DNA of 64,000 nucleotides from a virus (Duplodnaviria > Caudoviricetes), in the IMG/VR virus record IMGVR_UViG_3300025129_000005; one strand, written 5' to 3'. The notes beneath the pieces are model-generated. The model did no database searches. It saw only the letters and a program-made list of their open reading frames with translations, and had not been told where the DNA came from. A program made the translations under genes and the position numbers. This document shows positions 1 through 12,142 of the stretch, one piece after another (position 1 is the stretch's first letter; every line of letters starts with the position of its first letter).

Positions 1-76
1 TTCTGTCTTTGCTGAGGGATGTCGGCAGGAACATGCTGAACTGGTATTCCACAGATCATCAAAAGAAGCGCGGTCA

Positions 77-361
77 TTGGCGTGGAAACGCCCGCACGGT
101 AGTTTCTGCTGCGACTGGATCGACCTACGAGTTAATCGAGTAAAAGAAGTTGACCATTTGACCGACGGCAAAACAGAACCATTTGTTTGCCACGATAACG
201 CGATGTTTCGTGAGGCTGGGTGGAGGAGTGAAGATTGCTCGTCGTGTGCCAGTTGTGGATTGACCGACTTTTCGGACGGAGAAAACAGGCAATGGGCAGT
301 TTGCCTTGAGTGTGGGCAGTGTGGCGAGTGCGGACACGACGACGAGTGTATAAGCGCCTAA
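77..361 (+). CDS. Cys-rich hypothetical protein; frame is open to the window start, so probably 5'-truncated
   Basis: ORF track; CxxC pairs (CSSCASC, CLECGQCGEC); no in-frame stop between position 2 and 77. Confidence 0.55.
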   Translation: MAWKRPHGSFCCDWIDLRVNRVKEVDHLTDGKTEPFVCHDNAMFREAGWRSEDCSSCASCGLTDFSDGENRQWAVCLECGQCGECGHDDECISA

Positions 362-371
362 CAAGTATTAT

Positions 372-445
372 CGCGGAATAGAGAAATGGCATCTCGTAAG
401 GTTCATATCCTTGAGTTACGGGTTCGAATCCCGTTTCCGCTACCA
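372..445 (+). tRNA. tRNA-Met(CAT), initiator-like (C1-U72 mismatch)
   Basis: Cloverleaf CGCGGAA/TTCCGCT, anticodon loop TT-CAT-AT, TTCGAAT T-loop, encoded CCA. Confidence 0.9.
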
Positions 446-449
446 AGTT

Positions 450-583
450 CTGAGAGTGTCAGAGTATGTGTCATACAAGATCATATGCAATACGTGTAAA
501 TAGCATATTGAGTTGTCACAGGCTCGGATACATGAACCGAAAGTTCCTTTAAACACGTCAAAAGGGAACACTGACACTCTCAG
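450..583 (+). ncRNA. Candidate structured small RNA in the tRNA cluster
   Basis: Perfect 13-bp terminal inverted repeat CTGAGAGTGTCAG/CTGACACTCTCAG; internal hairpins; no ORF. Confidence 0.55.
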
Positions 584-604
584 TTAGTCTTTTATGATTT
601 ATAT

Positions 605-681
605 CTGTCGGTACGCAAGTCTGGTATGCGACCTGCCTTGGACGCAGGAAATCGTGGGTTCAAATCCTACCCGGCAGACCA
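605..681 (+). tRNA. tRNA-Pro(TGG)
   Basis: CTGTCGG/CCGGCAG acceptor, CCTGC-CTTGGAC-GCAGG anticodon arm, CCA. Confidence 0.92.
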
Positions 682-861
682 TTTATATAGACGCGACACT
701 TAGTTAGTGTCTAGTCAGGTGGCGATACCCTGATGATTGAAGGGGCTGACTATCCCAAAAAGCGCACTTTACACTCGTATGAGTATGTCCCTGTGGTGAC
801 AGGGTTAGTGTTACGGTGGAGATTAATTTCTGTGAAGCTGACGCACATCACCAAAATTTAA

Positions 862-937
862 GGGGGTAGGCAATGGGGTTGCGGCTTTTCCTTGCAAGGA
901 AAGTGACTGAGGGGTTCGATTCCCCCTACCTCCACCA
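862..937 (+). tRNA. tRNA-Ala(TGC)
   Basis: G3-U70 pair and A73 (Ala identity elements), loop CT-TGC-AA, CCA. Confidence 0.88.
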
Positions 938-951
938 AATTTATGAATTTT

Positions 952-1029
952 GACCCATTACTCCACGATGGCAGAGAGAACACGTTTAGACCGTGTACAG
1001 GGAGAGTTCGACACTCGCATGGGCTACCA
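952..1029 (+). tRNA. tRNA-Leu(TAG), short variable loop, imperfect stems
   Basis: ACACG-TTTAGAC-CGTGT anticodon arm; mismatches in acceptor and T stems; CCA. Confidence 0.65.
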
Positions 1030-1037
1030 AAGTTTAA

Positions 1038-1109
1038 GCTCGTCGAAGGTCTGATGACCTAGTATCTCTTACAAAGAGACTGGATGGTTTGATTCCATGG
1101 CGAGTACCA
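1038..1109 (+). tRNA. tRNA-Val(TAC)-like with 4-nt D-loop
   Basis: GCTCGTC/GGCGAGT acceptor, loop CT-TAC-AA, D arm AGGTC-TGAT-GACCT, T-loop TTTGATT, CCA. Confidence 0.65.
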
Positions 1110-1115
1110 GTTAAA

Positions 1116-1191
1116 TCAGGAGTTAAGATAGAGGTAAATCGTGTTGGCTGTGACCCAGCAAACAAGGGTTCGAATTCCTTACTCCTGACCA
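1116..1191 (+). tRNA. tRNA-His(GTG) with U-1:A73
   Basis: 8-bp acceptor TCAGGAGT/ACTCCTGA, GTTGG-CTGTGAC-CCAGC anticodon arm, CCA. Confidence 0.9.
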
Positions 1192-1194
1192 TAA

Positions 1195-1268
1195 GCCGGA
1201 TTAGTTAAATGGTATAACTTCTGTTTTGTAATCAGAATTTGCGGGTTCGATTCCTGCATCCGGCTCCA
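1195..1268 (+). tRNA. tRNA-Thr(TGT)
   Basis: Canonical cloverleaf, loop TT-TGT-AA, CCA. Confidence 0.95.
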
Positions 1269-1281
1269 AGTTTAAAGTTTT

Positions 1282-1355
1282 GCGGGTATAGTTAAAAGGT
1301 ATAACTACAGCCTTCCAAGTTGTAATTGTCGGTTCGATTCCGTCTACCCGCTCCA
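1282..1355 (+). tRNA. tRNA-Gly(TCC)
   Basis: GCGGGTA/TACCCGC acceptor, U73, loop CT-TCC-AA, CCA. Confidence 0.95.
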
Positions 1356-1392
1356 ATACATAAGTTGTCAATATTTTAAATTGAATATAGTG

Positions 1393-1421
1393 TTGACATA
1401 GTTACATAAAGACTGTAGAAT
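1393..1421 (+). promoter_or_regulatory. sigma70-like promoter for the second half of the tRNA cluster
   Basis: TTGACA-17 nt-TAGAAT. Confidence 0.8.
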
Positions 1422-1447
1422 ACTGATTAGTTTGTTTGAGAATTTAA

Positions 1448-1532
1448 GCCCCTTGCCCCGACAACAGACTTCTAATCTGTTCCTTAAAAGTTGGATGGAA
1501 GGTACGAGGTTCGATTCCTCCAAGGGGTTCCA
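1448..1532 (+). tRNA. tRNA-Arg(TCT)-like, lacking a D arm, with a long variable region
   Basis: GCCCCTT/AAGGGGT acceptor, ACAGA-CTTCTAA-TCTGT, GAGG-TTCGATT-CCTC, CCA; only ~9 nt between acceptor and anticodon stems. Confidence 0.65.
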
Positions 1533-1545
1533 GAATATTAAATAT

Positions 1546-1620
1546 GCTCCTGTAATTCAATGGTAGAATAGGCGACTTATAATCGCTCTATAGTAGGTTC
1601 GAATCCTCTCAGGAGTACCA
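1546..1620 (+). tRNA. tRNA-Ile(TAT)
   Basis: Canonical cloverleaf, GGCGA-CTTATAA-TCGCT anticodon arm, CCA. Confidence 0.88.
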
Positions 1621-1628
1621 GTTTTATA

Positions 1629-1716
1629 GAGGAAGTCTGATAGGCGTCATCCCAAACCTCTTTAAAAAAGTCGTGGGTGTCCGTTCCCTAAGAAGGTATG
1701 GGAGGACGAACTTCTC
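1629..1716 (+). ncRNA. Candidate ~90-nt rod-like small RNA between tRNAs
   Basis: Nested pairings GGAAGT/ACTTCT, CGTC/GACG, TCCCA/TGGGA, ACCT/AGGT. Confidence 0.4.
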
Positions 1717-1760
1717 AAGTTTACAAATCGCTGAATATAGTGTATCATGTTTATATGTAT

Positions 1761-1836
1761 AGGGGTGTAGCGCAAAGGCAGAGGCATCAGGTTTAAGCCC
1801 TGATTAGTGGGAGTTCGAATCTCCTCACCCCTACCA
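1761..1836 (+). tRNA. tRNA-Leu(TAA), short variable loop
   Basis: AGGGGTG/CACCCCT, TCAGG-TTTAAGC-CCTGA, 5-nt variable loop, CCA. Confidence 0.85.
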
Positions 1837-1849
1837 ATTTTATAGTTAT

Positions 1850-1925
1850 GGGGGCGTAGCCAAGTGGAATGGCAACAGACTTTTAATCTGTATATCGGTG
1901 GGTTCGAATCCCCCCGCCCTCACCA
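1850..1925 (+). tRNA. tRNA-Lys(TTT)
   Basis: ACAGA-CTTTTAA-TCTGT anticodon arm, canonical T arm, CCA. Confidence 0.93.
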
Positions 1926-1940
1926 TTAGCGAGGTAATCT

Positions 1941-2295
1941 ATGGATGATAAACTACATACCTTAGAAATAACTGGCGGTGAAACGATAGAATTCAGAGAT
2001 AAATTATCTGGTTTTTTATCAAGAGCCACTCGGAACCTTTGAGCTTACGGATAAAGAAAAATATCTGCACAGTTTGGTTAAAGAGTACCACACCCGCTGC
2101 GAGGAATACGACAGGACGGTATGTACAGACCCGGTAGAGCGAGATGGGATTCTCCCCGCGAATGGTTTTGAGGTACGCCAAATCAACCTAAACGCCATAG
2201 AAGTGCGAAAAAATTTACAAGATCGAGCCTACAGAGAGCGTGGGATCTCGCCCGGCGAGGTGAGCAGAGCCATTTCGGACTACAGAGCCAGATAA
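1941..2295 (+). pseudogene. Hypothetical gene interrupted by an apparent +1 frameshift in a T6 run near 2012-2017
   Basis: SD GAGG plus ATG at 1941; removing one T joins MDDKLH...LSGF to YQEPLGTFEL...SDYRAR in a single ORF. Confidence 0.45.
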
Positions 2296-2484
2296 CCGGG
2301 TTGTCGTAGGTGAACCAACCATTAAAAAAGAAGCAAAAAAATGTTTAAGTTTTATGTTTACATACGGTAAACAAACTGGTATAGTGGTTAAGTAGTCACA
2401 ATCACCCATCACAGATAACCAAGAGAGATACTTGGTGTCCAGAGATAATATCAACGGGGTAAGGGATTGTGTCAAGTTCTTTGA

Positions 2485-2879
2485 CAATTGAAAGTAAAAA
2501 CGGTTGACGGAATAATGGTTGCATGACCATAACGTACCCTGATAGGGGTTGAAATACCCAAAAGCCCGATGCGGTATATCTAAAGGGAGTGGTTAGTAAC
2601 GTCATCCTGAACAATGAACAGAACAGACCGAGGTAACGTAACCTAGTGTGGTCGCAATAAGGTCAAGGTTCTGGTTCTCCTGCTGAAATCCACACGATAG
2701 CCTATTATAGAATCAATGCCAGTGGGAGTTGGGGGTAAGGAAATTCCCCTCATCCAATGAACCCTTCGGGGGAGGTAAACAATAGGACTTGCTACCCTAT
2801 TGGGATGTGTCAGAATGTTTGGGTTGTCGAGAAATCTTGGATGATTGATGTTGTCATTCACCGTTTTTACTTTCAATTG
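2485..2879 (+). ncRNA. Candidate ~395-nt structured RNA closed by a perfect 20-bp helix
   Basis: 2485-2504 is the exact reverse complement of 2860-2879; multiple internal helices and a possible pseudoknot; no credible ORF. Confidence 0.6.
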
Positions 2880-3735
2880 CTAAAGAGCAATAAGTTCTTT
2901 CAAAATCAGAATATGGTCGCTTGAGGTCATAGAAATAAACCACGGTAACGTGGGGAAAGGGATGTACTTCTATCAGTCTCCCGCCCTATAAAAGGGATAA
3001 TCAAGCAAGCCTCGTCTTCACCCGTAATGGGTGAGTTCATCTTACCAAGGGATGGACTTGAGTAAGGACGGTAGAGTAGGACAAATAAACCAATGGGTAA
3101 CTCTGGTTGGTTTATCTTTCGGGTGGTACCGAATTACTGCATACCAAATCTACTTAATTACAAAAGATAAGGGGTAATCAACTCAGTCCGAGAGTAGTGT
3201 CAAGGGCGGTTGGTAGTTCGATAGGGAACGGATACCTACGGTAGTAGGTGGACGGAATCTTGACAAACCATTGAGTACCAATACAAACGGGAAAGATACT
3301 AGGTGTGTGGTATTTCGTAGTCGCAAGATTATGAATCCACAGGGGTCACACATCTTCGATAGTTAATTGACAGCCCTTGAAAGCTGTTGATTATTGGTTC
3401 AAATCCAATATTAATACTCAAACGCAAAGTTGACCCCGCTGTATGATGAAAGTGGCTTAATCCCCAACATGTTATGTGAATTGGGGTACTCAAAACCCGC
3501 AAGGTGGAGAGTATTGATAGGGAGTCGCACTTAGGGTGTTCGCTACACACTAGGGTAGACAAAGTATTGAATAGTCATACAGGACAGTGTTAAAGCAGAC
3601 ACTTTAATAATGCAGTCACGTTGGGATACATGAATGAGTTTCATGTGGACACGTGAGGAACCAAAGGGAATAAGTCCCCTACGGATAATCTCACAAAAGT
3701 CTTGACAACGAAGGTCTTAGTCTCAAACCTTCATA
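2880..3735 (+). ncRNA. Large ornate ncRNA, GOLLD-like
   Basis: ~850 nt without a credible ORF inside a phage tRNA cluster; many hairpins with GNRA loops; embedded tRNA-like element; terminal hairpin GAAGGT/ACCTTC followed by an A/T-rich hairpin. Confidence 0.6.
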
Positions 3736-3829
3736 CTTTTTAAAAAAAAGTATACAATGATTTACAAAGTAAATAATAAGATACACTTTTCCTGATATCT
3801 CTAAGAGGTATGAGGAAAAGTGTATATTT

Positions 3830-3913
3830 GGCGGGTAGCGTCAAGGTGACAAAAGTGGCTTGAACCCACTGCCACGGTAAAACGTGAGAGTTCGATTCTT
3901 TTACCCGCCTCCA
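3830..3913 (+). tRNA. tRNA-Ser(TGA)
   Basis: AGTGG-CTTGAAC-CCACT, long variable arm, CCA. Confidence 0.9.
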
Positions 3914-3918
3914 TTCAC

Positions 3919-4008
3919 GGAAAGCTAATCAGTAAGGTACTGACACCACCTGCTAAGTGGCTGGTTCGTGGTAACACGGATGGATTTCGAATATCCAGCT
4001 TTCCTCCA
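3919..4008 (+). tRNA. tRNA-Ser(GCT)
   Basis: Loop CT-GCT-AA, long variable arm, GGAAAGC/GCTTTCC acceptor, CCA. Confidence 0.9.
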
Positions 4009-4026
4009 TTAAACATAAGGACTCTT

Positions 4027-4371
4027 ATGCCCCATCTAAATGAACATGAACAACAATCCATTGAACATTTTGGCAAATCATACACAGAGGTTCATCAATT
4101 CCTTGACCAATTTCAACCACAGTTTCGTGGACCAGAACACAGACGTATCCTTCACCATACAATGGGTGTAAACGAGGTTGTAAGACGTTTTGGTGAAGAA
4201 ACAAGATCAGTGGTCGAACTTCATATAAAAGAAGATTGGAAAGGGTATTGTGGAAGTCACTATGTCCCAACGTTAAAAGAAATCGACCTTGACAATTGGT
4301 TATTGCTTAATTATAATGTAAAGGAGTATATGGACAATTTAATGATGGAGTTGTATTCCGAAAAGCTGTGA
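4027..4371 (+). CDS. Hypothetical protein, His-rich (DUF6915-like)
   Basis: H..FLDQ, HRRILHH..G and LHIKEDW pattern; SD AAGGA. Confidence 0.55.
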   Translation: MPHLNEHEQQSIEHFGKSYTEVHQFLDQFQPQFRGPEHRRILHHTMGVNEVVRRFGEETRSVVELHIKEDWKGYCGSHYVPTLKEIDLDNWLLLNYNVKEYMDNLMMELYSEKL

Positions 4372-4544
4372 AGACATTATATAAAACTATTTCGTGGAGA
4401 TTTTTTGCAACATTTTTCACTTTTATTATATCTTTTGCGTTAACAGGATCAGTTGATATTGCATCCCAAATAACCACTCTAGAGTTTGTCGTGAAAATGT
4501 TGTTGTATTATATCCATGAGAAGGTGTGGGAGAAGGTCAGATGA
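4368..4544 (+). CDS. DUF2061-like small membrane protein (58 aa, not in ORF track)
   Basis: GTG start; KTISWRF...T...LTG.....A......K..LYY.HEKVW; stop overlaps the cysC ATG (ATGA). Confidence 0.7.
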   Translation: MKTLYKTISWRFFATFFTFIISFALTGSVDIASQITTLEFVVKMLLYYIHEKVWEKVR

Positions 4545-5452
4545 AATGTGTATGGTTAACCGGTCTACCCTGTTCAGGAAAGACCACAATTGCAAATGAA
4601 TTGAATAAAGTATTAACAAATTCGGTTGTATTGGATGGGGATGATCTAAGATCAACCTATTTAGGCAAAAATGTTGGATTTTCTCCACAAGATAGACATG
4701 ATCATATTTTAAGAATGGGTGAGATTGCAAAGCTTTTTGTTAAGACTGGTACATATGCCATTTGTTCATTCATATCACCAGAAGCTAAAGCAAGAGATAT
4801 GGTACGTGAATTGTTTAATGATGGTGATTTTATTGAGATTCATGTATCAGCGTCTAAGGATACATGTGCTGAACGTGATGTAAAGGGTATGTGGAAACGC
4901 GCCATGAATGGGGATATTACCCATTTCACAGGTTTTGATGCGCCTTATGAAGAACCGATTAATCCTGAGTATACAGCATTCACAGAGTTATCCACAATCA
5001 AAGAATGTGTAGATGATATTATTGATCTATTAAAACCTTATCACAAACCAGCATGTATGTTTATAGGTCGTTGGAATGGGATTTTCCATAATGGTCATGA
5101 TTATATTATTCGTAAGAAATTAGATGAAGGTAAATCCGTAACCCTTGCCATACGTGACGTGGCACCGGATAAAAACAACCCTTGGTCTGCTAAACAAGTC
5201 AAGGAAATGATTGATTATAGATTCAAGGACTATCCAGACGTAAAAACGATTATAATTCCAGATTTAGAATCTGTGGAGTACGGTCGTGGCGTTGGGTATG
5301 AAGTCAATGAGATTAAAGTTGATAAATATATTGCAGGTATCTCAGGAACAGAATGTAGAAAGATGATTTTAGAGGGTGATGATGATTGGAAACAGTTCGT
5401 ACCTGATGAGGTGGTTGAGTATTTAACAGACTATAATAAGAGGTTTACATGA
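4541..5452 (+). CDS. cysC: Adenylyl-sulfate kinase fused to a cytidylyltransferase-like (HxGH) domain
   Basis: WLTGLPCSGKTT, LDGDDLR, RDVKG, FTGFDAPYEEP; C-terminal GRW...FHNGH. Confidence 0.92.
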   Translation: MKCVWLTGLPCSGKTTIANELNKVLTNSVVLDGDDLRSTYLGKNVGFSPQDRHDHILRMGEIAKLFVKTGTYAICSFISPEAKARDMVRELFNDGDFIEIHVSASKDTCAERDVKGMWKRAMNGDITHFTGFDAPYEEPINPEYTAFTELSTIKECVDDIIDLLKPYHKPACMFIGRWNGIFHNGHDYIIRKKLDEGKSVTLAIRDVAPDKNNPWSAKQVKEMIDYRFKDYPDVKTIIIPDLESVEYGRGVGYEVNEIKVDKYIAGISGTECRKMILEGDDDWKQFVPDEVVEYLTDYNKRFT

Positions 5453-6033
5453 ATAATTTTGAAGAATTTAACGGATCTTTGTCTATATTAGAAAGTTTTG
5501 ACTTGAATAAAACATCGACACTATCAAAAAAAGTTACTCCTTCCCAGTTTTATACGATGATGACTGATTTGATGGATAATTCTGATTGGTCTGAACAAGA
5601 TTATAATGACGCTAGGGATGATTTAAAGAAGTCTATAGACTATATTAGGGGGTATACTTTCGTTGATAATGGCGAAATGTTCTTGGTTTTCTTTGTAAAG
5701 AATGTCAAAAACGAGATAGAAGTACATTTTATAAACGTTACACAGAATAGATTTAATGTTAAAACCCATACTCACGGTAAAACTTCACAGGTTGTTTTTG
5801 CTACGGTAGTTAAGACAACGTTGGACTTTTTGAAAACATCTGGTTATGATAAAATAAGAATTAGAACCGATACCGGAAGAGATAAACTCTATAAAAAAAT
5901 ACTTGATGTTGCCGTGGAAAAGTATCTAAGTGATTGGTCGTTTGTAAGCCGAGAGCAATCAGGTGATGACGTTTCTTTTTTGTACAAGAAAAGGGATAGA
6001 TTATTGGAAGGTCTAATTGGGAGATATACATGA
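5449..6033 (+). CDS. Hypothetical protein
   Basis: 194-aa ORF translationally coupled to both neighbours. Confidence 0.75.
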   Translation: MNNFEEFNGSLSILESFDLNKTSTLSKKVTPSQFYTMMTDLMDNSDWSEQDYNDARDDLKKSIDYIRGYTFVDNGEMFLVFFVKNVKNEIEVHFINVTQNRFNVKTHTHGKTSQVVFATVVKTTLDFLKTSGYDKIRIRTDTGRDKLYKKILDVAVEKYLSDWSFVSREQSGDDVSFLYKKRDRLLEGLIGRYT

Positions 6034-6683
6034 GTAGTGTTAAACTTGTTGCGATAACGAAACCTGTTATTGAAGAGTGTGAAACGGCAGAGGAATTGAT
6101 TGCTTATGTTGCAAGGGTATCAAACCCTAACAATCAAGCAAACCACAAAACTGCGGGGAAACTGTTGAAATATTGTGCTGATCACGCACATTGGTCGATC
6201 TTTGAAACTGCCAGTATGACCATGGAAATTAAATGTACCAGAGAAATTGGTAGGCAGATCATCCGTCACAAGTCATGCAAGTTTCAGGAATTCTCACAAA
6301 GGTATGCAGAGGTCACAGAGGATTCGTTTGAACTATCCGAGGCACGTCTACAGGACAAGAAGAACCGACAGAGTTCTATCGAAGTTCATGACAAAGGGCT
6401 ACAGGATTGGTGGACACTGAATCAAGCACGTCTTCGTGACAGTGCGGTCGAGCTATATCAAGCAGCCTTGGCAAAAGGTATCGCTAAAGAGGTCGCAAGG
6501 AAGGTTCTTCCTGAAGGGTTGACCAAAACGACATTGTACCTCACAGGGGATATACGCTCCTTTATCCACTATTGTATCCTACGTTGTGATGACGCAACAC
6601 AGAAGGAACATAGGGTGATAGCACAGGAAATCAAGGTTATCTTGTTGGAACAATTTCCGTCATTGACAGAATTGTTTGAATAG
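6030..6683 (+). CDS. thyX: FAD-dependent thymidylate synthase
   Basis: HWSIFE, RQIIRHKSCKFQEFSQRY, ARKVLPEG, HYCILRC...TQKEH. Confidence 0.95.
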   Translation: MSSVKLVAITKPVIEECETAEELIAYVARVSNPNNQANHKTAGKLLKYCADHAHWSIFETASMTMEIKCTREIGRQIIRHKSCKFQEFSQRYAEVTEDSFELSEARLQDKKNRQSSIEVHDKGLQDWWTLNQARLRDSAVELYQAALAKGIAKEVARKVLPEGLTKTTLYLTGDIRSFIHYCILRCDDATQKEHRVIAQEIKVILLEQFPSLTELFE

Positions 6684-6709
6684 GATAAGATTATAGTTAT
6701 AGAAATTGA

Positions 6710-6782
6710 AGCGGTGACAGTTGATACTGATGACACTCTCATAAGGTGTTCAGTAAGGGTTTGATTCCCTTCACCGCTACCA
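6710..6782 (+). tRNA. tRNA(CAT) with 4-nt D-loop (Met or Ile2)
   Basis: AGCGGTG/CACCGCT, D arm CAGT-TGAT-ACTG, ACACT-CTCATAA-GGTGT, T-loop TTTGATT, CCA. Confidence 0.75.
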
Positions 6783-7179
6783 AAATTAAAGGAAACTTAT
6801 GACATACGATGAATGGGCAGACGAAGTAGGAATCTTTAAGGATTCTGAAAGTCGTGAAGCATGGGATTATCAACAGAAACGGATTGATAAACTCGTAAAA
6901 CAGATACAGGATTTAGGTCAAGAAGGATATGATGATGTTTAAGTTTCGGAGAAAAAGGTCAAATTGTAACAAAAACCCATACAATTTCTTTGATGAATAC
7001 GAGAAACACTATTCGTGGGATATAGGGAGACAAACACGTGATAAGTAAAAAATTGAAGGAAATGACCTACAATGATTATGCGGCACTGTCTTTAGGTGAA
7101 GCGCAAGCATTGAAGCGAATGATTGACGCAGAACTTAAACGTCTGGAAGACACTATTGCAGATCTGAAAGCAAAGGCTA

Positions 7180-7863
7180 ATGAATAATTGGATTCGCATT
7201 AAAGATCAGAAACCCGAAGATGGACAAGATGTGTTCTATTTTTTCGATGTTTTGGGTGTTTATAAAGGCAGATATTTAAGAAAAGAGTATCCAAGGGAAA
7301 TGTTTGAAGAGGGTACTGAACCTGTATATGGTGACTGTTTCTACGGTAAGAAGGGGTTTCTGACTGATGACGTAACTCATTGGATGCCTGCGCCTACTGA
7401 TGGAGAATGGGATAAAGTGTTACCTGATGGTCCAGAGGATTATGTCAAGATTCATGATGGTCATTTTGATGGTTGGGCACACAAAGATAATGTCCTCATT
7501 GTCAGGAAAGACCGTTATGAGGGTATGAAAGCACAAATCAAATACCTTGAAGATGGTCACAAGACAGGTCTTGTATGTCCTGATGATGATTGTCCTTGTC
7601 ATATTTACTGGCAGGAAGAACACGATGGTTATCGTTGTGGGTGTTGCTTGAAGACCTATCCTACCGAAGAGGTAGAGAGTGGTCACCCGAAATACATTAG
7701 CAAGTATGAACGTCCTTGTCCTCACTGTAATCCTCATAAAGAGAACACGAAAGAGTTTTTTAAGAATGGGTTCTTGGTGTATACCGCAGGAGTGGAACCG
7801 TATATCACAGAACATTACGTCTGTGAAAAATGTTACAGTACATATTGTATAGAATCAATCTAA
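7180..7863 (+). CDS. Hypothetical protein: DUF551-like N-terminus, Cys-rich C-terminus
   Basis: WIRIKDQKPE...VTHWMP; several CxxC pairs. Confidence 0.7.
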   Translation: MNNWIRIKDQKPEDGQDVFYFFDVLGVYKGRYLRKEYPREMFEEGTEPVYGDCFYGKKGFLTDDVTHWMPAPTDGEWDKVLPDGPEDYVKIHDGHFDGWAHKDNVLIVRKDRYEGMKAQIKYLEDGHKTGLVCPDDDCPCHIYWQEEHDGYRCGCCLKTYPTEEVESGHPKYISKYERPCPHCNPHKENTKEFFKNGFLVYTAGVEPYITEHYVCEKCYSTYCIESI

Positions 7864-7957
7864 GGAAGTTTAACTAGATAGGATACTAGTCTTGATTGGA
7901 AATCAATGAGTTCGTGCTGATACCACGGATACGGTTCAAGTCCGTAACCTTCCTCCA
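7864..7957 (+). tRNA. tRNA-Ser(GGA)
   Basis: Loop TT-GGA-AA, long variable arm, TACGG-TTCAAGT-CCGTA, CCA. Confidence 0.82.
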
Positions 7958-8076
7958 TGTGAATATTGTGATGAATGTTTATAACGCACAACCACTGAAT
8001 GGTACAAGGGAATTATTAAAACATATCGAGCGTGATGTGTTGACGTAAATCTTTATCCGTAGAACAGGAGAAATAT

Positions 8077-8283
8077 ATGTCAAAATTGCAAAATTTTATT
8101 TTAGCACCAGATCAGATGAATGAAGCTGCTTATCACGGTAATATCGGTTTTGAGGAAATGGTCAAGTTTTACGGTAAAGCTACCAAAGCAGAGATAATTA
8201 AAATGGAATTATTTATTAAAGAAAACGATTGGGACGGATTTAAATCAATTATTAAAAAGGTGGTTGGAGTTGCATTAAAATAA
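8077..8283 (+). CDS. Hypothetical protein
   Basis: SD AGGAG plus ATG. Confidence 0.7.
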   Translation: MSKLQNFILAPDQMNEAAYHGNIGFEEMVKFYGKATKAEIIKMELFIKENDWDGFKSIIKKVVGVALK

Positions 8284-8300
8284 TTCATAATATTATTTAC

Positions 8301-8376
8301 GGGCCTTTAGTTCAGTTGGTAGAACCCCCGGCTCATAACCGGGTTGTCGTAGGTTCGAATCCTGCAGGGCCCACCA
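8301..8376 (+). tRNA. tRNA(CAT), Ile2 (lysidine)-type body
   Basis: GGGCCTT/AGGGCCC acceptor and CTCATAA loop, resembling bacterial tRNA-Ile2. Confidence 0.85.
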
Positions 8377-8474
8377 TAAATAAAATAACTATCTAAATGT
8401 AGGTAGATGTATAGTGATATCGGGTATCAAACAGTGTTAAATAAAGGTAACACTAACACAAAGGAGATTTGTTT

Positions 8475-8768
8475 ATGAAAAAAGTATTGTTAATCGTTTT
8501 AATGTTGTTCTGTGCAAGCTTCGCTTATGCGGAATTAGGTTCACCAAATTTCACCAAGGTCTATCCGACCAGCAAGGGTGAAGTTACATTCAATCACTTG
8601 TCTCATTCAGTGAAAGGTGACAGTTGTGACGCCTGTCATGAGTGGGTCAATCAGTTCACCGAAGTTGGAATGAATAAGGATGTTGGTCACAAGGTTTGTA
8701 AAGTTTGTCATAAGGCAGATAAAACCAAGACCGCCCCGACTATTTGTACTGGATGCCATAAAAAATGA
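8475..8768 (+). CDS. Periplasmic triheme cytochrome c7 (PpcA-like), copy 1
   Basis: Signal peptide ending AYA; FNHLSH; CDACH; GH..CKVCH; CTGCH. Confidence 0.88.
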   Translation: MKKVLLIVLMLFCASFAYAELGSPNFTKVYPTSKGEVTFNHLSHSVKGDSCDACHEWVNQFTEVGMNKDVGHKVCKVCHKADKTKTAPTICTGCHKK

Positions 8769-9028
8769 AAAAAATAATTATGACTCTGTTGTTGGTATTG
8801 ATATCAGAGTTTTGTTTTTCCTCAACAATATCGACAAAAAGGGGTCCTGTGGATTTTCCACATCAACCTCACACGTCAATAATGGGGTGTATGACTTGTC
8901 ATAACCCTCATGGTGGTATGATGGGTGGGTTTGGTGCCGCAGAAAGAACTCATGCGTTTTGTCAGTCGTGTCATGACCCGAACTTATTACCAGATAAGTG
9001 TAAATTTTGTCATAAACCAAAAAAGTAA
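8765..9028 (+). CDS. Periplasmic triheme cytochrome c7 (PpcA-like), copy 2
   Basis: Signal peptide; FPHQPH; CMTCH; TH..CQSCH; CKFCH. Confidence 0.88.
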   Translation: MKKIIMTLLLVLISEFCFSSTISTKRGPVDFPHQPHTSIMGCMTCHNPHGGMMGGFGAAERTHAFCQSCHDPNLLPDKCKFCHKPKK

Positions 9029-9036
9029 TATAAATA
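9029..9036 (+). promoter_or_regulatory. T4-type late promoter (endolysin)
   Basis: TATAAATA. The same motif occurs at 10998, 11913, 14877, 18748, 27560, 29889, 30524, 37688, 46815 and on the minus strand at 45224-45231. Confidence 0.75.
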
Positions 9037-9063
9037 CCTTCGATGTGTAATTGGAGGTAGAAT

Positions 9064-9642
9064 ATGAGTTACTTTTGGGATGCGTATGCAATAACAATGT
9101 CACATGAGGGTGGATACTCATTTGATGAAGATGATGTTGGTGGTGAGACATATAAGGGAATTTCTAGGGTATACAACCCATCTTGGATAGGTTGGGATCA
9201 CATTGATTATGTGAGATCCAATTTCGATTTTCCAAAGTGTCTTGAATTTTCTGAAACTTTACAAGAAGATGTTAAACGGTATTATAAAGAGAGGTACTTT
9301 GACCCATATTGTGGCGATGATATGCCTAAAATGTTGGCTTTGGAGATGTTTGATACCAGTGTTAACATGGGGGTAGGTCGTGCGGTAAAGTTTATGCAAA
9401 TCGGGTTAAACGTTCTTAATAGAAACGGCGAACTGTATCCAGATATGGTTGTTGATGGTGGATATGGATCAACAACACATAAATATCTTTATACATATTT
9501 ACAAACTGATAGTGAAGAATTACTATGTAAGATAATAAATATTTTACAAGGTAATCACTATATTGAATATATGACAAAATCTCCCAAACAGGAGAAGTAT
9601 GCTCGTGGTTGGTTCAATAGAGTGGATATTAGAAAACGATGA
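9064..9642 (+). CDS. Glycoside hydrolase family 108 endolysin with peptidoglycan-binding C-terminus
   Basis: HEGGY...D.GGETYKGI; FDTSVNMG; Q..LN; C-terminal GWFNR. Confidence 0.88.
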   Translation: MSYFWDAYAITMSHEGGYSFDEDDVGGETYKGISRVYNPSWIGWDHIDYVRSNFDFPKCLEFSETLQEDVKRYYKERYFDPYCGDDMPKMLALEMFDTSVNMGVGRAVKFMQIGLNVLNRNGELYPDMVVDGGYGSTTHKYLYTYLQTDSEELLCKIINILQGNHYIEYMTKSPKQEKYARGWFNRVDIRKR

Positions 9643-9664
9643 AGGTGGGAGAAAATAGGGAATA

Positions 9665-10309
9665 ATGGGAATCAGAGAACATTTAATAGGCGAAGAGTTT
9701 GCAAGATGTGATATTAACGCACTTAATGAATCTTCGTTGTCAAGGGTTTGGAGACAGACCCAAGAACACGATTCTGGTACTATATCTGCATATCGTGACG
9801 CAAGAGATTGTGGGGATGGTGTGAAGTATACGAAATCCGAGAAACAGAAGAGAAACAATATTCTGGCATCCAGACTAGAAAGAATGGGATATGGTATCAC
9901 TAAGATTAAAGGTACTTATATAGAGAATTATGGTTCAGATAATGAAGTACCTGTTAAAGAGGAATCATTTCTTGTTATTGATTTGAAGGACAAAGGAACA
10001 TTAAAAAATGATTTGATATCTTTAGGTACAGAGTTCGACCAAGACTCCATTACTTATAGTAAGTCATCTGGCGAATACTACATCATTTCTACTAATGAAT
10101 GTCCTAATGGGTATCCCGGTAACGGTAGAATTGGTGTTGAGAATAAACTAGGAAAGTCAATGTTCGGCAAGAAAGGTGAGTTTTATTCAAAAGTTAACGG
10201 TAGACCTTTCGTGTTTGAGTCAATCCAGAATAGGATTAGAACGATACTTGACCACACTCCGACAGAAATGCGATCAGTTAGACATTTTTCTGAACAAAAA
10301 GTTGAATAA
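9665..10309 (+). CDS. Conserved phage protein, paralogue A
   Basis: ESSLSR..., G.ISAYR, G.Y.E, E.SF.V, QDSI. Confidence 0.8.
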   Translation: MGIREHLIGEEFARCDINALNESSLSRVWRQTQEHDSGTISAYRDARDCGDGVKYTKSEKQKRNNILASRLERMGYGITKIKGTYIENYGSDNEVPVKEESFLVIDLKDKGTLKNDLISLGTEFDQDSITYSKSSGEYYIISTNECPNGYPGNGRIGVENKLGKSMFGKKGEFYSKVNGRPFVFESIQNRIRTILDHTPTEMRSVRHFSEQKVE

Positions 10310-10328
10310 TAAACCAATAGGCAAATCA

Positions 10329-10967
10329 ATGGGAATTAGAGAATATCTGATAGAGAGTTCATTGAGTAGATTATGGAAACATAATGAAGAACACGATTGT
10401 GGTGGAATTACTGCGTTTAGGTTATACACTAATTGTGGATATATGGATAACAAACAACCATGTTACCCCGATAAACCGCCTGTGAGGATAACAAGAAAAG
10501 AAAATGACAAGAGAAATAAGGCACTCATGGCAGACCTCATAAAAATGGGGTATAAAGGTGCCACAAAACTTGTCGGGTCTTATCTTGAGGGTGGTGTTTC
10601 TACAAAGGAGATATCATTCTTTGTGGTCGATTTTGACAATAAAGGTACTCTTGAGAATGACTTGATTCGTCTTGGTAAAAAGTATGAACAAGATACTATT
10701 CTGTTTGTACCAAAAGGGTCAATCCAGAACAAAGATAAAGCTTATTTGGTTGGTACTAATAATTGTCCTAATAATGACACAAAAATAGGACAAAAGATGA
10801 TATTTAATAGAGGTAAAGTTGGATATGATTCACCATTTTACACATCACGTGTTAACGGTAGACCTTTGATATTCGAAGGAATTGAATTATATGAAGGATT
10901 GGGGTTTAGTTCGGGTTCTAATGCAATGATGGCTGGAAGATATGCGGAAGAATATGAAAAAAAATGA
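10329..10967 (+). CDS. Conserved phage protein, paralogue B
   Basis: Tandem paralogue of 9665-10309 (MGIRE..I, ESSLSR, SRVNGRP..FE); likely ATG at 10329. Confidence 0.8.
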   Translation: MGIREYLIESSLSRLWKHNEEHDCGGITAFRLYTNCGYMDNKQPCYPDKPPVRITRKENDKRNKALMADLIKMGYKGATKLVGSYLEGGVSTKEISFFVVDFDNKGTLENDLIRLGKKYEQDTILFVPKGSIQNKDKAYLVGTNNCPNNDTKIGQKMIFNRGKVGYDSPFYTSRVNGRPLIFEGIELYEGLGFSSGSNAMMAGRYAEEYEKK

Positions 10968-11065
10968 TTAATTTTTATTAATAATTTGTTTTTGTGATAT
11001 AAATAGTGTTAGGGAAGACCTCTGCCGAATCTCGCTTAAATCTAAAGGAGATGGAGGTGCTTATT

Positions 11066-11506
11066 ATGAGAAAAGACCTTATGCCAGTAGGACGAATTAA
11101 CCAATTGTCCATGTTTAACGATTTTGAGAGGATTTTTGATCACGTATTTGGCAACGTGGCTCCCCTCACTCAGCAAAATAGTTATCCTGTATGCAACGTT
11201 TTTGTTGATAAGGATGAGGTATTGAACTTTGAGTTCGCTTTAGCTGGGTTCAAAAAAGAAGAAGTTGTCGCAGAAGTTGAGGACAATGTTCTGACTGTAA
11301 AGGCAGAGAAGTTGACCGATGAGACAGACAACAAGTACATCATCAGAAAGTTTGCGAGACGTTCTTTCACAAAGCAGTATAATTTAGGTGATTTTCATGA
11401 TCCAGATACTGCACAAGCAAAGTTTGAAGATGGTGTTCTTACAGTGACCTTCGCTAAGAAGGTTCTGGAACAACCAGAAACTAAAGTCAAGAGACTAGAA
11501 ATCTAA
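11066..11506 (+). CDS. Hsp20/alpha-crystallin small heat-shock protein
   Basis: YPVCNV, EFALAGFKKEEV, RRSFTKQY, A.FEDGVLTV; SD GGAGGT. Confidence 0.93.
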   Translation: MRKDLMPVGRINQLSMFNDFERIFDHVFGNVAPLTQQNSYPVCNVFVDKDEVLNFEFALAGFKKEEVVAEVEDNVLTVKAEKLTDETDNKYIIRKFARRSFTKQYNLGDFHDPDTAQAKFEDGVLTVTFAKKVLEQPETKVKRLEI

Positions 11507-11705
11507 GGAGTTCCAGAGGTCTTCCCTACAATTAATATTTATAACACCTATTTCCGGGGTATTCTTCGGGACACTAAACACTAAATCAGATGTAATATGT
11601 GTGAAAAGGTCAATCTCTTGGCAAATGGCAAACTTGACAAGACAGTGTTGATATGATATTTTATGGTTAAATCAATATAATGGCAAACTGAAAGGGATTT
11701 ATAAT

Positions 11706-11897
11706 ATGAAATATCCTTATTGTGACTACAAAGATGGCTGGGATAGTAAAAACCTAAAAGTGGTTGAAGGTGATTCCGGTGAGTTATTTACTCTGTCCAA
11801 TGATATTAAAGCAGAAAGAACTTACGAGAGTGGATATTTAAGACGTGAGACTGTTTACTTTTGCCCTGAATGTGGTAAGCCTTTTATTGATGTGTAG
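11706..11897 (+). CDS. Small Zn-ribbon hypothetical protein
   Basis: YPYC...CPECG. Confidence 0.6.
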   Translation: MKYPYCDYKDGWDSKNLKVVEGDSGELFTLSNDIKAERTYESGYLRRETVYFCPECGKPFIDV

Positions 11898-11950
11898 TGC
11901 ATTATTCAAAGATATAAATAAAAGAACAAGCAGCAAAAATAAAATAAAGT

Positions 11951-12142
11951 GTGAGGTGTAGTATGTCAATTGCAGCATTTGGTGTTCCAGTTTTTAATTC
12001 TCAAGGAAATTCAAGAAAACCACCCATTATTGTCGGGGAAATTAATGATAAACTTAGACAATTAGGAGTTTCATCTCAAGATGTTATAACAATTCAAGTG
12101 GAGCAGGACTTTTATCACGTATTTTATCGTAAATCCGACTAA
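11951..12142 (+). CDS. Small hypothetical protein downstream of a late promoter
   Basis: ORF followed by a terminator-like hairpin at ~12150-12200. Confidence 0.6.
   Translation: MRCSMSIAAFGVPVFNSQGNSRKPPIIVGEINDKLRQLGVSSQDVITIQVEQDFYHVFYRKSD

Follow-up and report, generated by a model that had tools for sequence, protein, structure and literature searches.

Directly upstream of a phage GOLLD RNA gene, a non-coding element is closed on itself by a helix of 27 positions that is real, lies far beyond chance and is dominant in every fold computed. The DNA analysed here (hereafter the window) is the whole stretch of 64,000 nucleotides, and comes from an uncultured, giant, T4-like phage (it encodes a DNA polymerase, a ribonucleotide reductase, a DnaB-type helicase and a thymidylate synthase). 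We tentatively read the element as an extra non-coding module in the GOLLD leader, carried by an rRNA-operon-like precursor in which the helix would act as an RNase III-type leader-trailer stalk, and we consider this quite possible, although we hold it with reserve.

The closing helix and its setting

The preliminary description had claimed an exact 20-bp inverted repeat at the ends of the element. The repeat search bore this out (2485-2504/2860-2879) and extended the repeat to 27 positions (2478-2504/2860-2886), of which one is a G.U wobble and another an A/C mismatch (93% complementary; duplex energy of -31.6 kcal/mol). None of 100 shuffles of the window contained a comparable inverted repeat, and a further copy of either arm or of the element was not found in the 64 kb. 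The 5' arm (2478-2504, + strand, perfect over 2485-2504) displayed pair probabilities of about 1.0, and the 3' arm (2860-2886, + strand, perfect over 2860-2879) was supported by the repeat search, the pair probabilities and the whole-transcript fold. In the minimum free energy (MFE) structure of the whole putative transcript (2392-3760, 1369 nt), 26 of the 27 helix positions were paired and no predicted pair joined the interior to outside sequence. An rRNA-operon-type leader-trailer helix requires flanks that pair over more than about 17-20 bp; here they form 26 pairs in 27 positions, 20 of them contiguous and perfect.

The element lies in a tRNA island with 15 tRNA genes at 372-8376 (ARAGORN). 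Together with GOLLD, it occupies a non-coding span (2296-3829) between the last real gene upstream (2074-2295, phrog_27964) and a tRNA-Ser gene that begins at 3830. A sigma-70-type promoter-like site at 2357-2385 on the + strand (TTTACA, 17-nt spacer, TATAGT and an upstream TG; 10/12 matches, extended -10) is the sole good + strand match upstream of the element and GOLLD, and it is followed by a putative 5' leader of about 86 nt (2392-2477, + strand) in which folding predicted a 6-bp hairpin (ACCAAG/CTTGGT, 2418-2436). No promoter-like site was found on the + strand at 2520-2900, and neither a promoter-like nor a terminator-like site was found between the element and GOLLD, which argues for a single transcript.

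Two other long stems were seen in the island. Between the end of GOLLD and tRNA-Ser(TGA), a near-perfect hairpin of 21 pairs (3778-3828, -27.2 kcal/mol) falls in a 120-nt window with a z of -7.2. As no T run follows it, we do not read it as an intrinsic terminator, and in sequence it looks like an RNase III-type processing site. The second, a 94% complementary long-range stem of 16 bp at 450-583, is located between tRNA-Met and tRNA-Pro; it encloses 102 nt and starts directly after AAGTTCT, a word similar to the start of the repeat at 2474; it is a second helix-clamped module of the tRNA island.

Whereas the clamp proved real and exceptional, the fold proposed inside it was not supported. The interior (2505-2859, + strand) is a purine-rich, non-coding sequence of 355 nt and about 44% G+C, in which we detected no family and no structural signal. 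The preliminary description had proposed a structured RNA with a pseudoknot on the basis of short complementary words, and all of these are indeed present (GTGTGG 2646/CCACAC 2690, CAGAAC 2619/GTTCTG 2668, CCTATT 2701/AATAGG 2781, and CCC-TTCG-GGG at 2762). However, internal helices were not above chance, as dinucleotide shuffles had 16.5 +/- 5.6 perfect complementary pairs of 6 bp and the interior had 13, and in the nested ensemble the pair probability was 0.003 for GTGTGG/CCACAC and 0.0 for CCTATT/AATAGG. Folding energies lower than those of shuffled controls, the generic mark of a structured RNA, were not found in the interior either globally (MFE z +0.92, and +0.55 for the opposite strand) or locally, the mean z of 120-nt windows being +0.95 as compared with -1.64 in the adjoining GOLLD. 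[quoted passage not shown]

A hidden or decayed gene was considered and ruled out, since no open frame of the element matched Pfam or PHROGs, and there was no gene call in the element within a collection of 5.8 billion proteins. The longest open frames are on the minus strand, which is a consequence of the purine-rich + strand. The G+C content is nearer to that of RNA genes than to that of most neighbouring genes (33-38%).

As the preliminary description had anticipated, the element did not match any known RNA family. Using cmscan on 1.8 kb and, with lax filters, on the 515 nt of 2386-2900 alone, we obtained only noise among 4227 families at E <= 10, and the absence of RNase P and tmRNA signatures was corroborated by cmscan and ARAGORN. 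For RNase P RNA, the bacterial A/B, archaeal and type T models (P4 pseudoknot, CR-I to CR-V) gave no match at E <= 10, and the look-alike short words AGGAAAUUCC and ACAGAAC do occur in the element, but in the wrong order. No tmRNA was found in 1-12000 by ARAGORN or by Rfam, and ARAGORN predicted no tRNA in the element. Group I and group II introns were also discarded, as there was no Rfam match and the flanks are a leader and GOLLD and not a split gene.

Searches for homologues gave similar results. Distant-mode blastn of 2300-3830 against 50,697 phage records yielded no match, and no related RNA was present in the loci anchored on APS kinase (L001-L160, from metagenomes and IMG/VR). Contigs that are 99% and 50-70% identical do exist, as seen through the APS-kinase neighbour (protein clusters P0001-P0060), and the DNA-polymerase relatives found in IMG/VR were short fragments. 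Finally, 12 degenerate 24-mer probes, derived from the open frames of the element taken as pseudo-peptides, found no copy in IMG/VR or in 185,579 GTDB species genomes; their sole match (L287) was due to chance, and so was another match inside a coding region (L282).

GOLLD proper and its boxA-like leader

To place the element with respect to GOLLD, the start of GOLLD proper has to be located. The 3' domain (3300-3729, + strand) was identified by Rfam RF02032 (177.2 bits, E = 4e-48), a model that spans only the 3' half of GOLLD. Considering that the nanocage-forming GOLLD env-38 has 833 nt, with a 5' region at 1-420 and a 3' region at 421-833 (PMC12286853), GOLLD proper was expected to begin at about 2900. 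In fact, a 5' domain lying beyond the Rfam model was delimited at 2905-3299 (+ strand) by alignment with two related loci (L188 and L283), and its size agrees with that of the env-38 5' region (PMC12286853). In the linker, at 3357-3417, we also noted a tRNA-like stretch that matched Rfam tRNA weakly (21.6 bits, E = 0.18), which fits reports of tRNAs that are sometimes covalently embedded in GOLLD linkers (PMC12286853).

We gathered 118 GOLLD loci from IMG/VR with a 3'-core pattern and searched for the nearest subfamily with two 5'-domain patterns, which found L283 and L188 as the only members. In a BLAST comparison, L283 showed 76% identity with the window over 757 columns (2896-3630), so that the GOLLD homology begins inside the word GTTCTTTCAAA described below. 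In L283 the same promoter hexamers (TTTACA/TATAGT), with the same 17-nt spacer, stand directly before GOLLD and the element is absent; the homologous word, GATCTTTGAAA, lies about 20 nt past the -10 hexamer, and the leader at 2392-2477 has no counterpart there. In L188 the order is promoter, GTTCTTTGAAT and GOLLD, again with the element absent. Nothing like 2386-2900 was found in either the loci or the whole records of L283 and L188 (62.5 kb and 210 kb), and nhmmer with 2300-2900 yielded no match at E <= 1 in the 118 loci. The RF02032 covariance model did not match within 2386-2900 even at E <= 10, and a comparison of the element with the 5' domain of the same RNA revealed no similarity (z between -0.8 and +1.2). 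We considered a tandem duplicate of that domain, with which the 418-nt spacing of the direct repeat described below would fit, and rejected it because the alignment scores equalled those of shuffles.

These comparisons agree with the preliminary description in that the element is a separate unit directly upstream of the GOLLD RNA: the homology starts at 2896, and L283 and L188 do without the element. Since, in addition, it does not resemble the 5' domain, the alignments point to an addition to the GOLLD leader and not to a domain of GOLLD. Also in support of a separate unit, the element carries a copy of the leader word found in front of GOLLD genes.

This word resembles boxA, the antitermination signal of rRNA (rrn) operons. 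The left copy (2474-2488, + strand; core GTTCTTTGACA at 2476-2486) overlaps the 5' arm of the helix, and the right copy (2892-2906, + strand; core GTTCTTTCAAA at 2894-2904) is at the 5' edge of GOLLD. The two 15-mers are identical at 13/15 positions and thus form a direct repeat, and they are the only two intergenic copies of the word in the window, one on each side of the element. Each core fits 10/11 positions of GYTCTTTAANA, a consensus that is gamma-proteobacterial (PMC5725501) and may not be that of the host, and both are intermediate between the rrn boxA consensuses of E. coli (UGCUCUUUAACA) and B. subtilis (AUGAUCUUUGAAA) (PMC13753749). Hence, both words combine a fit to the boxA consensus with a place in the 5' leader of a non-coding RNA unit. 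Their position 8, however, departs from every published boxA consensus (G or C against A in E. coli; in the right copy, C against G in B. subtilis). A loose boxA pattern occurred four times in the window against 1.5 expected, and 7/100 shuffles reached four. These window-only statistics are weak, so that the case for boxA rests on the pattern found across GOLLD loci.

Two nucleotides before the right word there is a mini-hairpin, ATTGCT-AAAG-AGCAAT (2876-2891, + strand, stem 2876-2881/2886-2891, -5.0 kcal/mol), whereas none was found in the 32 nt upstream of the left word. The mini-hairpin, the right word and GOLLD make up an ordinary GOLLD start. Positions 2876-2886 are part of both the mini-hairpin and the 3' arm of the long helix, so that the two structures are mutually exclusive.

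Among L161-L278, 91 loci had enough upstream sequence to be searched with the pattern G.TCTTT.A[AC]A, and 77 of these 91 carried the boxA-like word (nearly always GTTCTTTGAAA; GOLLD consensus GUUCUUUGAAA) at the GOLLD 5' edge, 740-1050 nt upstream of the GOLLD 3' motif. There its density was 1.58 per kb, as compared with 0.042 per kb in the rest of the loci. Moreover, of 50 distinct leaders, 30 had a Watson-Crick hairpin of at least 5 bp that ended 0-5 nt before the word, whereas random positions gave 6.3%. The stems vary by locus (TCGGA/TCCGA, GTCAC/GTGAC, GTTCTC/GAGAAC, TTTAGT/ACTAAA, TCAGG/CCTGA) and, as their sequences differ while pairing is kept, this amounts to covariation of the mini-hairpin. 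In many leaders, a promoter-like sequence of the TTGACA type also lies shortly before the hairpin. Judged by its sequence, the hairpin-boxA arrangement is best described as an rrn-type leader for GOLLD, although an alternative is that the mature RNAs contain the word as a conserved 5' element. In the literature searched we did not find GOLLD linked to boxA, Nus factors or antitermination; an earlier notice of the motif is possible.

Some related arrangements were observed in other loci. In L194 (3170-3500) there are two tandem promoter/mini-hairpin/boxA-like units 244 nt apart, and about 170 nt of non-coding sequence, headed by the first unit, come directly before GOLLD; by its sequence, this is a candidate for another extra boxA-led module before GOLLD. 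In L162, L209 and L215, GTTCTTTAACA, an exact fit to GYTCTTTAANA, occurs between tRNA genes upstream of GOLLD, so that the word is not specific to GOLLD but a feature of the RNA island as a whole. Likewise, in the alignment of supplementary file 5 of PMC12286853, several ROOL sequences have UCUUUGAAAA, UCUUUGAUAA or UUCUUUGAAAAA at their beginning, in the 5' flank, and a boxA-like leader may therefore precede ROOL RNAs too.

The GOLLD-wide pattern bears on the possibility that GOLLD is oversized here, at about 1.35 kb, and includes the element as an additional, integral 5' domain, which would remain attached and either decorate the nanocage or be packed into it. The element appears to share a transcription unit with GOLLD, it has the size of a GOLLD 5' domain (about 400 nt), and the closing helix insulates it as an independent domain would be; furthermore, GOLLD 5' regions are variable, and GOLLD sometimes contains covalently embedded tRNAs (PMC12286853). 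It lies, however, upstream of the hairpin-boxA leader that marks the GOLLD start in 77 of 91 loci, it lacks similarity to its own 5' domain and to any of the 118 loci, it gives no folding signal in contrast to both GOLLD domains, and the relatives do without it. We thus regard an oversized GOLLD as improbable.

The overlap of the repeats with leader signals is also relevant to a DNA-level alternative, in which a recombinase acting on the 27-bp inverted repeats would flip the 355 bp that they enclose and would thus gate transcription from the promoter at 2357 into GOLLD. The geometry would fit such an inverton, as inverted repeats of 20-30 bp bracket a few hundred bp between a promoter and a gene. 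Nevertheless, neither the ORFs within 9 kb nor the eight large ORFs that were scanned revealed an invertase or integrase, and the repeats overlap RNA-level signals, the leader mini-hairpin and the boxA-like word. Of the two imperfect positions, moreover, one is a G.U on the transcribed strand, which fits RNA pairing, although this is weak evidence. An inverton is, in our opinion, very improbable.

Possible processing or insertion of the element

We believe that the element and GOLLD probably come from one precursor that is cut apart as rRNA is, an interpretation built on analogy. In B. subtilis, rrn leaders have a small 5' hairpin followed at once by boxA (PMC13753749). In rrn operons, a boxB-boxA-boxC set follows the promoter and a second set precedes the 23S gene, and the leader-trailer helices exceed 17 bp, that of E. 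coli pre-23S, which is cut by RNase III, being of 27 bp (PMC10250234).

By this model, the promoter at 2357-2385 would drive a precursor composed of the leader, a boxA-like word, the 27-bp helix around 355 nt, the mini-hairpin, the second boxA-like word and GOLLD. The boxA-like words would, in the manner of rrn operons, bring in the NusB/NusE antitermination complex of the host, and, because the first one overlaps the 5' arm, this arm would be held at the polymerase until the 3' arm emerges, a tethering equivalent to the looping model put forward for the leader-trailer helices of rrn operons (PMC10250234). With its 26 pairs, the helix would then be a leader-trailer stalk of the size cut by RNase III. 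Once cut, it would yield an RNA of about 355-395 nt, and positions 2876-2886, no longer held in the helix, would be free to form the mini-hairpin and so restore the standard hairpin-boxA 5' end of GOLLD. This RNA may work by way of its sequence or of partners that bind it, or it may consist mostly of stuffer. We infer that the unit is co-transcribed, that Nus factors bind it and that RNase III cuts it, and any function of the RNA set free is likewise putative.

Several lines of evidence argue for the rRNA-operon-like precursor. The helix is beyond chance, the two words flank the element, and the mini-hairpin overlaps the 3' arm; the hairpin-boxA pattern extends across GOLLD loci and matches the published rrn leader layout; and the homology with L283, where the same promoter hexamers are found and the element is missing, starts in the right word. 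A second boxA-containing stem encloses a cassette in two other loci (L219 and L248, see below), and the stems at 3778-3828 and 450-583 show that further long stems are found in the RNA island. On the other side, we count an interior that gives no sign of structure, the lack of any homologue found, the left word without a mini-hairpin, the deviation at position 8 and the weak window-only boxA statistics.

The cassettes of L219 (10528-10972, - strand) and L248 (8886-9323, + strand) deserve attention because they can be read in two ways. After a tRNA, a long-range inverted repeat of 12-14 bp (GTAGACGTTCT...AGAACGTCTAC) contains the boxA-like word and brackets an ORF of 125/126 aa whose product is a predicted membrane and coiled-coil protein; the bracketed cassettes are of 438-445 nt, and the outermost pair of the stem changes from G:C to T:A between the two loci, which is compensatory. 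The element showed no residual similarity to the protein of these cassettes.

Although they support the existence of boxA-containing stems, cassettes of such similar size bracketed by boxA-like-word repeats in other GOLLD islands are also in line with a view of the element as the relic of a DNA-level insertion. It would then be an inverted-repeat cassette in the GOLLD leader, either MITE-like or a decayed version of the ORF cassette of L219 and L248, landed by recombination at the repeated hairpin-boxA, with the helix as a tolerated by-product and a functionless interior. The absence of the element from the GOLLD loci and whole records of L283 and L188, the 13/15 direct repeat that flanks it and an interior that looks like unstructured non-coding filler are in keeping with this. 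As regards the features of a MITE or transposable element, terminal inverted repeats are present, whereas an abutting target-site duplication and dispersed copies are missing: the direct repeats are offset from the ends of the inverted repeat, unlike a classical target-site duplication, and the bases beside the perfect repeat differ (TTCTTTGA to the left and CTAAAGAG to the right); the 64 kb contain one copy and the records of L283 and L188 none; and the 24-mer probes found none in IMG/VR or the 185,579 GTDB species genomes. There is no transposase or recombinase within 9 kb, no similarity to the protein of L219 and L248 is left, and the G+C of about 44% resembles RNA genes and not most of the neighbouring genes (33-38%). 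Furthermore, a perfect 20-bp repeat that is interlocked with RNA signals is unlikely to persist unselected when the GOLLD of relatives is at 76% identity. We therefore consider an insertion relic unlikely, but it is a serious rival to the precursor reading, whereas an oversized GOLLD and an inverton are less likely.

GOLLD RNAs form 14-mer nanocages. It is conceivable, though we find it doubtful as a whole and argue it by analogy, that phage GOLLD genes and the module are made as rRNA-like precursors in which the hairpin-boxA recruits the Nus complex of the host, with its antitermination and RNA-chaperone roles, to make and fold giant RNAs, while the stalk excises an orphan RNA of about 355-395 nt that works with the GOLLD cage. 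If GOLLD genes carry an rrn-type hairpin-boxA leader, their synthesis would be tied to the host Nus machinery. The helix-clamped module would mean that further RNA cargo can enter the GOLLD leader and is probably cut out again. Such an insert-and-excise design, if true, would be a natural system for the co-expression and separation of large RNAs.

Comparison with known systems

When compared with the GOLLD RNA itself, the element is in the same locus and strand and probably in the same transcript, it is near the size of one GOLLD domain and its setting, a phage tRNA island, is the same. It differs in that it has no sequence or covariance-model similarity and no folding signal, lies outside the conserved hairpin-boxA start and is missing from the GOLLDs of L283 and L188. 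MITEs and invertons, for their part, likewise have a few hundred non-coding bp enclosed by terminal inverted repeats of 20-27 bp, but the element is single-copy, lacks an abutting target-site duplication and a recombinase nearby, and has its repeats interlocked with RNA signals.

T4-type phages reportedly carry PeSL "mobile regulatory cassettes", units of an early promoter plus a stem-loop that flank ORFs and that Arbiol et al. are said to have described in 2010. There, as here, repeated regulatory motifs flank small modules in plastic T4-like regions and could mediate gain by recombination, the repeated motif in the window being then the hairpin-boxA leader; the differences are that the repeat here is boxA-like and the module non-coding.

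Hairpins processed by RNase III are found between the cistrons of phage T7 early RNA and of T4 transcripts. These and the helix have in common at least about two turns of near-perfect double-stranded RNA between the units of a phage polycistronic transcript, and the window has a second such hairpin at 3778-3828. However, those of T7 and T4 are local, whereas the strands of the element are 355 nt apart, as in rRNA precursors.

Lastly, in comparison with rRNA operons (E. coli pre-16S/pre-23S; rrnTAC), the element is phage-borne and encloses a 355-nt RNA that belongs to no known family and has no detectable fold. Its boxA overlaps the helix, whereas that of the operons is 18-19 nt upstream of boxC; GOLLD, the downstream RNA, is not bracketed by a comparable helix; and Nus binding and RNase III cleavage are, for the element, predictions drawn from the analogy. 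Against these differences, the flanks of a large non-coding RNA pair in both cases, over 27 positions here and 27 bp in pre-23S, a boxA-type word stands immediately 5' of the leader strand or inside it, with a second one before the next large RNA in the unit, a small hairpin stands right before boxA, as in B. subtilis rrn leaders, and tRNAs are found within the unit.
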